DNA of 64,000 nt from a virus (lineage: Duplodnaviria; Caudoviricetes). The position numbers and the translations under genes were made by a program. Location: positions 1 through 64,000 of IMG/VR virus record IMGVR_UViG_3300035182_002389. One strand, written 5' to 3'. Below the pieces are notes generated by a model. That model was not told where the DNA came from and did not search any database. It saw only the letters and a list, made by a program, of their open reading frames with translations. Positions 1-40,781 of the stretch are shown in pieces; the first letter of the stretch is position 1, and every line of letters begins with the position of its first letter.

Positions 1-30
1 CGGCCCCCCCCCCCCCCCCCCCCACAATAG

Positions 31-13083: not shown

Positions 13084-13492
13084 ATGTCCGACTTGCCGCA
13101 AGCCACGACCCTCGCGGGAGGGATCTTCGATGCGCCCGAGGTCCGTGCCGCGATCAAGGCCGCCATCGTCAAGAACGTCGAGCCGGCCGAAGTGTGGGGC
13201 GACCCCGCCTACGATCCCGAGTTCGGCGGGTGGGTGGCCGTCGTCGCCGTCACGCCCACGGGGCCGCTGGTTCGGGCAGGGTTTCGCCTGAGCCTCGCGA
13301 GCGCGAAGTCGGAGCCCCTCGGATGACCGGCGCAGCCTCGAAGTACGGACACGAGCACGTCTGCTACGCGTGCGAGCTGTCGTTCGACAAAGAGATCGAG
13401 CGGCTGACCGAAGAGCGCGACGCGGCCATCCTCCGCGCCGAACGCGCCGAAAAGGCGCTGAAGACCTACCTCGACGAGCTGCGGAGCAAACC

Positions 13493-13771
13493 ATGATCGC
13501 CGTTTACAAATACGTCCTCGCCGAGACGGACGACCAGACGATCCTCATGCCCAAGGGCGCGAAGATCCTGAGCGTCGGCGCGCAGCGAGACCTCATCTGC
13601 CTCTGGGCGCTCATCAACGACGGAGAACCGATGATGGGCCATCGCTTCTACATCGTCGGCACGGGCTACCCGGCCTCGCACGTGGTCAGGTCGACGTTCC
13701 TCGGCACGGTCTCTCTGCACAACGCGGAGCTGATCTTTCAGGTCTTCCAGGACAACGCGGTGAACAAGTGA
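13493..13771 (+). CDS. conserved phage hypothetical protein
   Basis: MPKGAKILSVGAQ...LWAL...VGTG pattern common in phage ORFs. Confidence 0.6.
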   Translation: MIAVYKYVLAETDDQTILMPKGAKILSVGAQRDLICLWALINDGEPMMGHRFYIVGTGYPASHVVRSTFLGTVSLHNAELIFQVFQDNAVNK

Positions 13772-15174
13772 CTTCTCTCAAAGAGACCGTCGTGAAGGCA
13801 GGCGCGGCGCACTACGTGCTACCGAAGACGGGCGACATGAAGGTCGAGGCGCACGCGTTCCTCTCGGAGCCGCTGTTCGAGGCCTCCGAAGAGAACGTCT
13901 GGACGCAGATCGCGACCGGCGCCTCGTTCGACACCGTCACGGGCGCGTACCTGATGCCCGATTGTCACTCCGGCTACGGCGTGCCCATCGGCTCGGTCAT
14001 CGTGACCGACAATGTCATCATCCAGGGCGGCTCGGGTTACGACATCTCGTGCGGCGTCCTCTACATGAAGGCGTCCATGAAGGCGCATCAGGTCGCGGAC
14101 CGCGTGAAGCGGCGCACGTGGATCTCGGAGATCGAGCGCCGCATCTCCATGGGCAAGGGAAGCCACCGGGCCGACATGATGCCCTCTTTCACGACGGACA
14201 AGGCGCAGGAGATCCTCCGCTATGGAGCGAAAGCGCTCGGCGTCGACGAGATGCTCTGCGAGCGGCAGTACATCCCCGTCGCGGAGGGCTACGACCTCGG
14301 CAGCATCGAGCGCGCGGCCAAGCTCGTGCAGCCGCAGCTCGGGAGCGTCGGCGGCGGCAACCATTTCATCGAGATGCAGTGCGACAAGGAGACCGGCGAG
14401 GTCTTCATCATGATCCACTGCGGCAGCCGCGGGTACGGCTGGCAGACCGCGAACCACTTCTTCCACGAGGGCGCGAAGGTGCGTGGCCTGCCCGACAACC
14501 GTCGCGAGGACTCGTGGCTCTACGCCGACGAGCCGCTCGGCAAGGCGTATTGGGCCCACCACAACAGCGCCGCGAACTTCGCCGTCGCAAACCGTCACAT
14601 CATCGTCGACGGCGTGAGCCAGGCGACGCGCGTGGTCTTCGGCGGCGAGGTCGAGGTCTACTACGAGATCAGCCACAACCTCGTGCAAGAGGAGACGCTG
14701 GCGCTCCCCGACGGCGCAACCAAGCGCGGGTTCGTGCACAGAAAAGGCGCAACGCGGGCGTTCCCCGCGGGCCACCCCGACCTCGCGGGCACGCGTTGGG
14801 CGGAGACCGGCCACCCGTGTCTCATTCCCGGCTCGATGTACGAGGGCGCGGCCATCCTGTTTCCCTTGCAGGGCGCGTACAAGACCGGCTGCTCGGTCAA
14901 CCACGGCTCGGGACGGATCCTCGGACGCAAGGAGGCCCAGCGCCAGCTTGGGAGCAAGCAGGCCGACATCAACGAGGAGATGGCCACGGTCAAGCGCACG
15001 TTCAACGGCGTGCCCATCGAGGGCATCCTCTCGAACCACCGCCAGATCCCCCTCGACGAGTGCGCTCACGTTTATAAGGATTTGGACGCTGTCCTCGACG
15101 TGCTCAAGGTTGAGGGCATCGCGCGCGTGAAGAACCGCCTCTACCCGATCGCGAATCTGAAGGGCGCGGACTGA
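13768..15174 (+). CDS. rtcB: RtcB-family RNA ligase
   Basis: MPDCHSGYGVPIG, GYDISCG, GSVGGGNHFIE, IHCGSRG, HNL, HRKGAT, IPGSM, NHGSGR, DECAHVYKD. Confidence 0.93.
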   Translation: MTSLKETVVKAGAAHYVLPKTGDMKVEAHAFLSEPLFEASEENVWTQIATGASFDTVTGAYLMPDCHSGYGVPIGSVIVTDNVIIQGGSGYDISCGVLYMKASMKAHQVADRVKRRTWISEIERRISMGKGSHRADMMPSFTTDKAQEILRYGAKALGVDEMLCERQYIPVAEGYDLGSIERAAKLVQPQLGSVGGGNHFIEMQCDKETGEVFIMIHCGSRGYGWQTANHFFHEGAKVRGLPDNRREDSWLYADEPLGKAYWAHHNSAANFAVANRHIIVDGVSQATRVVFGGEVEVYYEISHNLVQEETLALPDGATKRGFVHRKGATRAFPAGHPDLAGTRWAETGHPCLIPGSMYEGAAILFPLQGAYKTGCSVNHGSGRILGRKEAQRQLGSKQADINEEMATVKRTFNGVPIEGILSNHRQIPLDECAHVYKDLDAVLDVLKVEGIARVKNRLYPIANLKGAD

Positions 15175-37044: not shown

Positions 37045-37722
37045 ATGATCATCGTAGAGCCCAGCGTCGTGATCGATGGCCCCGTGGACGGGGCCAAGAT
37101 GCTCCGCGATCTCGAATGGATCGCGCGCCACTGCTACAAGAGCGAAGGGCTCATCTGCGAGGGCAGCGCAGAGAAGATGGCGAAGAAGCTCTTCGAGAGC
37201 GACCCGCCCCACGTCGCCATGGGCGATCACATCACCCTGCGCTGCGTCTTCATCTGCGACCGCGGCGTCTCGCACGAGATGGTCCGCCACAAGATCGGCG
37301 TCGCCTTCGCGCAAGAGTCGACCCGCTACTGCAACTACAGCAAGGACAAGTTCGAGCGGCAGATCACGGTCATCCGTCCGCCGAACCTCAAGCGGCCCGA
37401 GCGATGGGAGAAGGCCATGCGAGACGCCGAAGAGGCGTACATGGAGATGCTCGACGCGGGCGACCCTCCCGAGATCGCGCGCTCGGTGTTGCCGAACGCG
37501 ACCAAGACCGAGGTCGTCTGCACGCACAACATCACGGCCTGGCGCCACATCTTCAACCAGCGGGCGGTGAGCAAGCGCGCGCACCCGCAGATGCGTCAGG
37601 TGATGGCGCCGCTGCTCTCGTGGTGCCGAGAGACGATCCCCGTCCTCTTCAACGACCGCGTCCCTGCGCCGCTCCCGGAGGGCGTGAAGCCCGCGATCGT
37701 CACCGTGGAGTGCCGGGAATGA
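37045..37722 (+). CDS. thyX: flavin-dependent thymidylate synthase
   Basis: RGVSHEMVRHK...QESTRY; ARSVLPNATKTE; NITAWRHIFNQR; AHPQMR. Confidence 0.92.
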   Translation: MIIVEPSVVIDGPVDGAKMLRDLEWIARHCYKSEGLICEGSAEKMAKKLFESDPPHVAMGDHITLRCVFICDRGVSHEMVRHKIGVAFAQESTRYCNYSKDKFERQITVIRPPNLKRPERWEKAMRDAEEAYMEMLDAGDPPEIARSVLPNATKTEVVCTHNITAWRHIFNQRAVSKRAHPQMRQVMAPLLSWCRETIPVLFNDRVPAPLPEGVKPAIVTVECRE

Positions 37723-38672: not shown

Positions 38673-38730
38673 GGCGTGAGATGACGCGACAACCGCGTCT
38701 ACGGGCAGGCGGCAGGAAAGGCGGGTGGCG

Positions 38731-40781
38731 ATGCTGAGTCGAATCACAGCGCAGCGCAAAAGGCGCTGTTTTATGGTCTACGACATGGAGTGGATCCCGG
38801 GCCAGTTGGAGGTCCGTCTCCTCGGCCTGTACGACGGCGACCGATACCGCGCGTTCCACAAGGTCGACGACTTCCTCAACGCGGTGCTGGTGCGTGAGAA
38901 CGCGGACAAATGGCTCTACGCCCACTACGGCGGCATGGCCGACGCGCAGTTCCTCCTCCAGCGCCTCGCCTCGCGCGCGGACGAGGGCTTTCAGATCGAC
39001 GCGTCCTTCTCGGGCTCGTCGGCCATCATCATCCACGTCACGCGCGGCGAGCTGAGCTGGCACTTCATCGACAGCTTCTGGCTGCTGCGCGATCGGCTCT
39101 CGAAGATCGGCGAAGCGGTCGGCCTCGAAAAGATGGGCGAAGAGTACGCCTGCGACAACTTCCCGAACTGCGGACACGTCGACAGCAACGAGATGAAGTA
39201 TCTCGATCCCTGCTCGTGCACGCACTCCTATGGAGCGCACGACAAGCAGCCGGGCACCAAGGACCTCGCGTGCCTCGCGTGCGGGTGCAGGAAATACGAC
39301 GGCGATCACCCCTACGCGATGTGCGTCTTCTGGGCGCCGATCGCCGAGCTGACGACGTACAACGAACGCGACTGCGTCATCTTGTACAAGGCCATCGAGC
39401 GCTTCGAGCAGACGCTGCTCGATCTCGGCGGCCAGCTCCAGATGACGATTGCCTCGTGCGCGATGCACCTCTTTCGTCGCAAGTACCTCCAAGACGACAT
39501 TCGCACCGTCGCCGCCGTCAACGGGTGGGCTCGAAAGGCCTACACGTCTTCACGCGTGGAGGTGTTCCAGACCCACTGTGAGAACGCTCACTATTTTGAC
39601 CTGAACTCGTCTTTTCCGTTCGCGATGACATTTGACTGTCCTGGCAACGTGAAGAAGATGCGCGCGAAGAAGCTGCCTCCCTACGGCAGCATCTACATCG
39701 CCGAGTGCGAGATCATCGTGCCCGAGATGTACCTGCCGCCGCTGCCGTTCCGGCACGACGGGCGCGTCTTCTTCCCGACGGGCACGTGGACGAGCTGGTT
39801 CTCGAACATCGACCTGGAGCTGCTTCAGAAGCGCGGCGGACGAATCGTGAAGGTGATTCAGTCCATCGAGTTCGAGAAGCAATCCTCTCTTCGCGAGTAC
39901 GCGATCGACATCTATGCAAAGAGAAAAGCCGCGACGACGAGCTACGAAAAGCTCATCCTCAAGTATCTGTTGAATAGCCTTGGGGGCGGGATGCGGATGG
40001 CGCCCTTGGCCGCATCCCGAGCCCCCTCTGGCGCCCATAGGAACTCTACGGAAAGTTCGGCGAGCGCACCGAGAAGACCTCGATGCTGCTCCATCCAACG
40101 TCGACCGACTGTCCTCACACGCCGAAGCATCGGTGCGACAGTTGGCCCATCTGCCCGCACGCCATCGAAGGCGTCGAGTGCAACCTCTGCATCCAGATGC
40201 TGTTCCCTGGGTGTTTGCTCGTCACCAACGAGGTCGAGCTGGCGCACGAGTGGGTGCCCATCGCGGTCCACATCACGGCCACCGCCCGCAAGAACCTCGA
40301 AGGTCACCTCTGGAATGCGCAGGAGGACATCTACTACTGCGACACCGACAGCGTCATCACGACCGTGCAGCTCCCGAGCGATCCGACCACCCTCGGCGCG
40401 CTCAAGCTCGAAGACGAGATCCGTAAGGGCGAGTTCATCGCCTGCAAAATCTACGCGGTCGAAGTCATCGACGAGAAGACTGGCCACGGTCACTGGAAGA
40501 CCAAAGCAAAAGGCTTCTCCAAGATGAACTACAGCAAGTTCGTCGACGTGAAGCTCGGCAACGACATCAAGCTCGCGCGCATGACGCGCATCCGCGAGCT
40601 GTATCGAAAGGGCAAGATCGTCCCCGAGGAGAACATCGTCGCCAAACGCCTCGTGCAGAAGTGCATGGCGAAGCGCTGCATGCTCCCGTCGGGACAAAGC
40701 CGCCCTTGGACGATCGAGGAAATCCAGAGAAACCGCATGGATCTCGGCATCGACATCGATCCCATGATCCTGTCGGATTGA
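38731..40781 (+). CDS. polB: family B DNA polymerase, reading frame interrupted by a 65-nt insertion in motif B
   Basis: ExoI YDME, ExoII HYGGMAD, ExoIII YNERD, motif A DLNSSFP and KYLLNSL in frame +1; LYGKFG, YCDTDS, KIY and KAKG in frame +3. Confidence 0.9.
39982..40046 (+). other. 65-nt hairpin-forming intervening sequence between CTT and CTC Leu codons
   Basis: gggggc-gggatgcgg / ccgcatccc-ga-gccccc stem; removal restores LNSLYGKFG. Confidence 0.85.

Follow-up and report, generated by a model that had tools for sequence, protein, structure and literature searches.

How can a virus obtain a complete replicase from a gene whose reading frame is broken inside a catalytic motif? This question is raised by the IMG/VR virus record IMGVR_UViG_3300035182_002389 (Duplodnaviria; Caudoviricetes), of which positions 1 to 64,000 were analysed; this whole stretch, i.e., the first 64 kb of a 202,518-bp record (65% G+C, estimated to be 94% complete), is called the window below. 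The gene concerned encodes a protein-primed family B DNA polymerase, and its motif B is interrupted by 65 surplus nucleotides (nt), which include a GC-rich hairpin and stand between two leucine codons. The answer towards which the sequence evidence leans, by a modest measure, is programmed translational bypassing, that is to say, the ribosome would leave the message at the first leucine codon and resume at the second.

First of all, the joined product matches the family PF03175 (E = 9e-30, 104 bits against a cut-off of 25.8), with the match spanning the junction, and its exonuclease motifs, motif A (DxNSSFP), motif B (KxxxNSxYGKF) and motif C (YCDTDS) all align with those of its relatives. The N-terminal part (38731..39981, plus strand), delimited by translation, the PF03175 match and alignment, carries the exonuclease motifs, motif A and the first half of motif B. 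Its frame is open from a GTG at 38725, and gene callers placed the start at ATG 38773; the probable start is ATG 38731, which agrees with the MLSRIT start in relatives. This open reading frame (ORF) makes up about two thirds of the polymerase and ends in ...EKLILKYLLNSL, with the codon CTT at 39979-39981, and past this CTT the same frame (frame 1) runs through 182 non-polymerase codons to a stop at 40527. The C-terminal part (40044..40781, plus strand, stop codon at 40779-40781), delimited by translation and alignment, lies in the -1 frame (frame 0) and contains the second half of motif B (YGKFGE), a Cys/His cluster, motif C (YYCDTDS), the KAKGF motif (KAKGFS) and the C-terminal domain. In this frame a TAG at 40038-40040 is followed by GAA CTC TAC GGA AAG TTC GGC. 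Translation thus confirmed what the original prediction had read from the letters, namely polymerase sequence K-Y-L-L-N-S-L up to the CTT, non-polymerase sequence from there to 40527, and YGKFG with the C-terminal motifs in another frame after TAG 40038.

When 65 nt are removed, LNSLYGKFGE appears exactly as in the intact relatives, so that the predicted restoration of LNSLYGKFG was upheld by alignment. Several deletion registers, from 39979-40043 through 39982-40046, are equally valid, since the dinucleotide CT stands at either border. The first start codon after the gap is ATG 40083, and therefore YGKFGERTEKTS is reachable only from upstream. Moreover, all insert-bearing relatives retain YGKF[G/S/A]E and show synonymous changes in it, and together with the lack of an earlier start codon this means that ribosomes must arrive from upstream; the same observation speaks against the two halves being made as separate subunits. 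By its coding pattern, the gene needs the gap removed.

The gap between CTT and CTC comprises 62 nt (39982-40043), and the proposed take-off codon, CTT (Leu; 39979..39981, plus strand, like all features of the insert), is the last in-frame polymerase codon before it. Directly after the CTT, folds and an inverted repeat define a two-part GC-rich hairpin (39982..40026), which is composed of a 6-bp stem P1 (39982-39987 with 40021-40026), a 9-bp stem P2 (39988-39996 with 40010-40018), a GA bulge (40019-40020) and a 13-nt loop (39997-40009); the stem of about 15 bp that the original prediction placed right after the CTT is thus real. It is followed by a single-stranded 17-nt tail (40027..40043), which ends in purine-rich AGGAA and holds the TAG (40038-40040) of the C-half frame, and by the proposed landing codon CTC (Leu; 40044..40046), after which TAC GGA AAG TTC encodes the Y-G-K-F of motif B. 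Compared with dinucleotide shuffles, the folding energy of the window hairpin yields no more than z = -1.4 to -1.8, an effect of the very high G+C content; the significance of the hairpin comes from its recurrence in relatives and not from the window fold alone, as far as folding comparisons go.

A second pairing had been predicted between the two ends of the insert (CCTTGGG with CCCATAGG), and this is not supported: it would need the same G residues as the hairpin, is broken by the change C40036G in the sister strain described below, and is not conserved in the other insert classes. A pseudoknot between loop and tail was also considered as a conserved feature (GGCGCC in both loop and tail of the window and of the relative L032, GCCCCC/GGGGGC in the relative L035), and it was ruled out, as the relative L041 has a UUCG tetraloop and a linker of 0-3 nt cannot span a 15-bp helix. 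A blastn-short search of the whole 202-kb genome matched the insert only to itself, i.e., it is single-copy, and gave no similarity to the hairpin repeat families of the genome, of which it had been considered a possible member. The stem pattern found 27 matches in IMG/VR, all of them chance hairpins, while the flank pattern found one metagenome match (the sister strain, contig L037), 0 in IMG/VR and only 7 chance hits in GTDB genomes. With cmscan against Rfam, hits up to an E of 10 were at chance level and all far below the gathering scores.

Could the insert be an artefact of assembly or sequencing, for example a collapsed or chimeric palindrome? Palindromic GC-rich DNA is prone to such errors, and the presence of the insert was judged on assembled contigs (IMG/VR, JGI, ENA, Logan), not on raw reads. 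However, the 65 nt are present not only in the IMG/VR record but also in a JGI contig and in ENA (megahit) and Logan contigs that derive from several studies, the samples behind runs X1-X5 being microbial mats and sediments, and the exact out-of-frame product is recorded on several contigs. Contig L003 (JGI 3300035661) is 100% identical across the site, insert included and without a gap, and a 326-nt Logan contig from an independent sediment study (run X4) covers 39939-40264 with 0 differences and no gap. A sister strain, 97.7% identical to the window (L002 from ENA, L037 from JGI, and run X5), shares the insert but for three substitutions (40027 T>G, 40029 T>C and 40036 C>G), all of which lie in the tail, the hairpin being invariant. 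In addition to these natural substitutions, covariation is present, and homologous inserts are found in distant relatives from other samples. The suspicion that reads might lack the insert was thus pursued on contigs, and no contig at 90% or more likeness is without it. Given the different assemblers and samples and the natural variation, an artefact is very unlikely, with a probability close to negligible, and the gap is real on the evidence of these sequences.

The polymerase gene of the sister strain differs in one further respect. An intein of about 260-430 amino acids is located in motif C (between YYCD and TDS) in many relatives (L002:1176-2666, L037, P0002-P0004, P0007 and P0012); the sister strain has it and the window has none, which means that intein presence varies at strain level in the same gene.

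If the gap is real, is the gene still in use? The insert may have inactivated it, i.e., a mobile or slippage-generated hairpin would have left the polymerase dead or dying, with the virus relying on another polymerase, a helper or co-infecting genomes. Such an account agrees with the broken frame and with the existence of an allele that has no insert and yet is 94% identical to the L041 type, which has one. Against it stands the pattern of substitution between the window and L002: the N-half has 21 synonymous and 0 non-synonymous codon differences in 358 codons, and the C-half has 18 synonymous and 1 non-synonymous (S to T, conservative) in 246 codons, which gives 39 synonymous and 1 non-synonymous in 604 codons for both halves, each in its correct frame. 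Since the insert is common to both strains and is itself diverged, it predates their split, and selection acted with the insert present. By this comparison, strong purifying selection acts on both halves of the insert-bearing gene. The suggestion in the original prediction that two intact halves argue for function is thereby borne out, and the relaxed selection that might have been expected in the C-half was not seen (18 synonymous changes against 1).

Other observations point the same way. The catalytic motifs are complete in four insert-bearing lineages, L002 keeps an in-frame intein in its C-half, and the C-half of L041 diverges from intact alleles no more than these do among themselves. 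The window and L032 inserts are homologous and conserved like their coding flanks (75.8% against 72-75%), and the insert, being single-copy, is unrelated to the repeat families of the genome. Moreover, no second DNA polymerase was detected in the 94%-complete genome in searches for Pol A, classical Pol B, Pol III alpha and other PF03175 members. The recent inactivating insertion that had been left as an option is therefore rejected in view of purifying selection on both halves, and a dead or dying polymerase is very improbable.

The key new finding is the recurrence of the insert. Comparable inserts are found at the same codon in relatives: taking the window as the reference polymerase (62 nt between CTT and CTC, 65 removed), L032/L033 (two runs, product P0118; about 51-58% identical to the window) have 58 nt between and 61 removed; L035 (products P0217 and P0126; about 44% identity, by tblastn against the intact P0005 and not against the window) has 56 and 59; L041/L042/L043 (three samples, five contigs, product P0183) have 47 and 50; and P0165, a relative of P0183 available as protein only, has 46 and 49, the former value being deduced from its out-of-frame translation, which gives CTC TAC GGA AAG TT after the gap. 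The L032 insert (L032:5378-5435) is clearly homologous to that of the window, with a compensatory stem change from CGG/CCG to CGA/TCG, further changes in bulge, loop and tail, and an outer stem (P1) that has lost one G and one C, one per arm and matching. The L035 insert (L035:2244-2299) is unrelated in sequence, and again it folds into a two-part hairpin. In the L041 insert (L041:4123-4169) the hairpin has 19 bp, with the UU of CUU taking part in the pairing, and a UUCG tetraloop (z = -6.2); two of its pairs are G-U, which means that the structure works only on the sense strand.

The layout is common to all: AAT-(AGC/TCC)-CTT, a hairpin starting 0-1 nt further on, a tail of 8-17 nt with a purine-rich end, and CTC-TAY-GGA-AAG-TT, although between classes the insert sequences are about 50% identical, which is the chance level. 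An equivalent gap thus recurs in distant relatives, as judged from their sequences, and the check on relatives that had been proposed with the original prediction came out in its favour both for recurrence at the same codon and for covariation, the latter in the compensatory change between the window and L032. All five removal lengths break the frame (2, 1, 2, 2 and 1 modulo 3); zero multiples of three among five has p about 0.13 and is not significant. None of about 270 family representatives has an in-frame insert at this motif B site.

Some sequences stand apart from this series. P0212, a 461-amino-acid product reading ...KLLMNAL-Y and then junk, might represent one more broken polymerase, in which the interruption falls one codon later. 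In L036 (3780-4050), a long-read-style ENA contig, the frame changes twice, once in a T run and once in a G-rich stretch, neither of them near motif B; these changes are most likely sequencing errors and were set aside as cases of recoding. Searches of viral and genome collections for related loci yielded none. Among phages nothing matched at the nucleotide level, and at the protein level the only hits were distant polymerases of tectiviruses or Methanosarcina viruses.

The codons at the borders are as constant as the layout. CTT precedes the gap in all four insert classes for which DNA is available (window, L032, L035 and L041), and CTC TAY GGA AAG TT follows it in every class, including P0165 as deduced above. 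Intact relatives have a single Leu codon here, which is CTG in three cases and TTG in one (L036, L038-L040), with two loose-end contigs showing CTC. Leu is encoded in this genome mainly by CTC (57.6%) and rarely by CTT (9.6%), and the codons just before the gap (39970-39981), TTG AAT AGC CTT, account for 6.9%, 7.8%, 29% and 9.6% of their respective families. The recurrence of AAT and CTT in all insert classes suggests either that the RNA preceding the hairpin is constrained in sequence or that these codons were transferred along with the insert. tRNA-Leu(GAG) reads both CUU and CUC by wobble, with the weaker G-U pair at CUU and a full G-C pair at CUC. Downstream of the hairpin no CUY comes before the landing CUC, if one sets aside a CUC lying across the helix end in two variants.

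Regarding tRNA genes, ARAGORN called two in the genome, at 111005-111099 and 145865-145937: a tRNA-Gln(UUG) that looks normal and a 95-nt 'tRNA-Pro(CGG)' that is doubtful, with 85% G+C and a long extra arm. With intron search the program gave two more calls with introns of 700-900 nt, which are implausible.

The distribution of the insert is patchy. In a tree of 246 sequences the six insert-bearing rows are scattered, and at least five gains or losses are needed; the window falls within a well-supported clade of seven, six of them intact, and the intact allele P0285 is 94% identical to the insert-bearing P0183 in the N-half. At the same time, the inserts of the window and L032 are 75.8% identical, with 72-75% identity over 300 nt of coding flank, i.e., the insert is conserved like coding sequence. 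On these grounds the insert family is old and constrained, and frequently gained or precisely lost; loss would be mechanistically easy through slippage between the CT repeats across the hairpin. No homing endonuclease of the HNH, HNH_3 or GIY-YIG type was found in the genome, and the neighbours of the polymerase gene have no Pfam hits.

How, then, would the gap be removed? In the mechanism favoured here, the ribosome would reach the point where CUU (Leu) is in the P site and the GC-rich hairpin, beginning at the A-site codon, blocks normal decoding. Peptidyl-tRNA-Leu(GAG), whose G34 forms only a G-U wobble at this codon, would release CUU; the ribosome would slide across the hairpin and the short tail; and the same tRNA would re-pair, now with a full Watson-Crick match, with the first free CUC 65 nt downstream. 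Translation would resume at UAC GGA AAG and give one polypeptide with an intact LNSLYGKFG motif B. The gap would thus be removed on the ribosome rather than in RNA. The locus and its relatives L032, L035 and L041 offer three of the features that such a hop calls for, namely a removable gap in a continuous conserved ORF, codons read by the same tRNA on both sides, and a stem-loop at take-off. The bypass is favoured because the matched, asymmetric Leu codon pair is conserved, because the hairpin sits exactly at the A site, and because there is a close parallel with the mobile gene 60 cassette of phage T4. Furthermore, the 5′ border lies at the base of the helix and the 3′ border 8-17 nt beyond it, which fits a landing set by the codon and not measured by the structure. 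The hop from CUU to CUC that had been proposed in the original prediction is thus the favoured one, the codon pair and the hairpin right after CUU having been met at the same codon in four insert classes.

Alternatively, the insert may be translated with a frameshift in or after it, which would put about 16-21 extra residues into motif B, or the halves may act as separate subunits. Strong hairpins can stimulate frameshifting, and no stop codon interrupts the downstream frame anywhere in the inserts of L032, L035 and L041. The window and L002 differ: TAG 40038-40040 closes that frame until 6 nt before YGKF, and no slippery site is located there, so that frameshifting inside the window insert is ruled out. 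In addition, the shift needed differs by class (-1 or +1), the peptides encoded by the inserts are not conserved, and about 270 relatives show no insertion in the middle of this dNTP-binding helix. Taken together, a frameshift or a split enzyme is very improbable, slightly more so than a dying gene.

Several observations weigh against the bypass. The A-site codon is neither a stop nor a hungry codon (GGG, UGG, GCG and GGG in the four classes, GGG being 17.7% of Gly codons), and no Shine-Dalgarno-like triplet is conserved 5-7 nt before the landing codon: AGGA precedes it only in the window and L002, 2 nt away, and L032, L035 and L041 have GAAAG, CAACG and AAAGA. The frame after take-off is open for 124-182 codons, so that any ribosome missing the hop would add a long junk tail. 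At its 3′ end the helix is overlapped by a CUC (40026-40028 in the window, and also in L032), which would permit unproductive landing unless masked by the stem. The hairpins, with 14-19 bp, are GC-rich, very stable and much larger than the take-off stem-loop of T4. The viral genome has no tRNA-Leu, and a search for RNA runs containing this sequence listed none. Cognate triplets inside the hairpin carry little weight as an objection, since in T4 scanning does not extend to the 5′ part of the gap (10.1101/2024.12.09.627546).

These difficulties, including the stable stems and the CUC at the helix end, would be removed by excision at the RNA level, in which the 65 nt are cut from the mRNA as a micro-intron and the ends are religated through an endonuclease or ribozyme activity and the viral RtcB. 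The absence of a stop or hungry codon and the long junk frame are irrelevant if ribosomes never meet the insert; removal that is exact and independent of length modulo 3 is also what splicing gives; and precise loss through reverse transcription of spliced RNA would explain the patchy distribution. The virus does encode its own RtcB, as predicted, with the gene at 13768-15174 (preceded by a DUF7352 gene at 13370-13771). As a pointer to splicing, however, RtcB was not sustained: no splicing endonuclease (EndA, PF01974) and no archease was found in the genome, and RtcB in phages is sufficiently explained by tRNA repair.

The structure of the insert speaks against excision as well. It matches no Rfam family, and its size (47-62 nt) is far below that of group I or II introns; no bulge-helix-bulge (BHB) can be drawn in the four classes, where the exons are unpaired and the borders asymmetric about a 4-bp helix; and the 3′ border lies at a variable distance of 8-17 nt from the sole conserved structure. 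The duplicated Leu codon (rare CUU, then CUC) has no role in any known splicing chemistry, and no spliced-form protein or contig was among the search results. The mini-intron option of the original prediction therefore gains no support, on account of the missing EndA, archease, BHB and Rfam hit and of the variable 3′ border. Excision in RNA is accordingly unlikely, although it remains the most serious competitor of the bypass, and its most specific form, a new kind of micro-intron in a virus of a bacterium-like host, i.e., a 47-62-nt hairpin cut between CU and Y at both borders by a nuclease or by self-cleavage and sealed by RtcB, would be less likely again.

Some features of the polymerase and its surroundings may be added. 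Right after motif B, at 40100-40195 of the window, the residues C442, H444, H448, C450, C456, H458, C465 and C468 (numbered in the joined polymerase, with one X counted at the break) are invariant, and this Cys/His cluster looks like a zinc-binding module specific to this polymerase clade. A ThyX (Thy1) gene is located about 1-2 kb upstream of the polymerase in both the window (37045-37722; L003:1273-1950) and L032 (1220-1900), and this partly conserved gene order supports a shared viral lineage. The contig starts with about 20 C residues (window 1-23). No terminal inverted repeat was found between its first and last 5 kb, though a protein-primed polymerase predicts one; at least one genome end is probably incomplete.

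What do these findings mean beyond the locus? Gene callers give a truncated ORF with a junk tail plus a fragment, so that this virus group seems to be without an intact replicase in databases. A literature search found no paper on protein-primed polymerases with an interruption in motif B. Few recoding events are as rare as long-range programmed bypassing, for which, to our knowledge, bacteria and phages offer a single established natural case: the cassette of T4 gene 60 and its homologues, which all reside in one gene. If the gap is bypassed, it would represent a second natural family of such long-range hops, located in another essential gene and a GC-rich setting, with no stop codon and no obvious Shine-Dalgarno element, and the mechanism would have evolved more than once. 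If it is spliced, it would represent a new intron class, a counterpart in a prokaryotic virus of IRE1/RtcB or archaeal BHB mRNA splicing.

Compared with known systems, the inserts resemble the Rickettsia palindromic elements in being short palindromic DNA within protein-coding genes; those elements, however, are multi-copy, have lengths in multiples of three, are translated and lie in tolerant loops, whereas the insert described here is single-copy, frame-breaking and placed in a catalytic helix. With archaeal BHB introns (cbf5) and IRE1/RtcB splicing (HAC1/XBP1) the common points are small frame-changing inserts (26-65 nt) and joining by RtcB, but here there is no BHB, there are no paired 7-nt border loops, neither EndA nor archease is encoded in the genome, and the borders are structurally unequal.

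The terminase of Streptomyces phage Hau3 is likewise a high-GC phage gene with short frame-breaking blocks in conserved sequence; its hops have been proposed with partial experimental support, local RNA structure bringing the landing codon near, but the gaps are 7-10 nt long and triggered by a rare UUA, whereas they are 47-62 nt here, with no rare A-site codon (PMC10732093). The byps of Magnusiomyces mitochondria are also short, GC-rich, hairpin-prone and frame-breaking inserts in essential genes, with matching or near-matching flank codons, and they are mobile, lineage-specific and skipped in translation; they differ in having 81 copies per mitochondrial genome, an unassigned A-site codon and relaxed decoding (PMC5009743). 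The present insert, by comparison, is single-copy, at one fixed site, in a bacterial-type context and with ordinary sense codons after take-off. The byp elements of Magnusiomyces capitatus mitochondria were reportedly described by Lang in 2014, and the bypass of T4 gene 60 is said to go back to Huang in 1988. In the gene 60 homologues as well as in the Magnusiomyces byps, the A site is occupied at take-off by a stop or hungry codon.

The nearest parallel is T4 gene 60. There too a gap of about 50 nt (47-62 nt here) lies within an invariant motif of an essential replication enzyme, with a stable take-off stem-loop (its UUCG tetraloop is shared by the L041 class), the frame may or may not change, and insertion is recurrent at one site and patchy among close relatives. 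Nevertheless, no homology of the insert to the T4 gene 60/MobA cassette was found, the gene is another one (a protein-primed PolB instead of the large subunit of topoisomerase II), and no sequence similarity was seen. Nor is there here a stop or hungry codon, a conserved mini-Shine-Dalgarno sequence or an AU-rich 3′ part, the insert being GC-rich throughout; the hairpins are much longer, no linked mobA-type HNH endonuclease was found, and no dedicated nascent-peptide extension is apparent, the peptide before take-off being the conserved helix of motif B. The MobA/gene 60 cassette has likewise been inserted repeatedly at one site, and the gene 60 homologues in myovirus topoisomerase genes use the U-to-C wobble pairs GAU/GAC and GGU/GGC (Manning and Atkins, 10.1101/2022.08.31.505936); CUU/CUC here is a pair of the same U/C kind. 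The four structurally equivalent and largely sequence-unrelated variants, together with near-identical empty-site alleles, form a natural mutagenesis series, and, if the gap is indeed bypassed, this second case would help to separate the signals that are required, i.e., matched codons and a hairpin at the A site, from those that are peculiar to T4.

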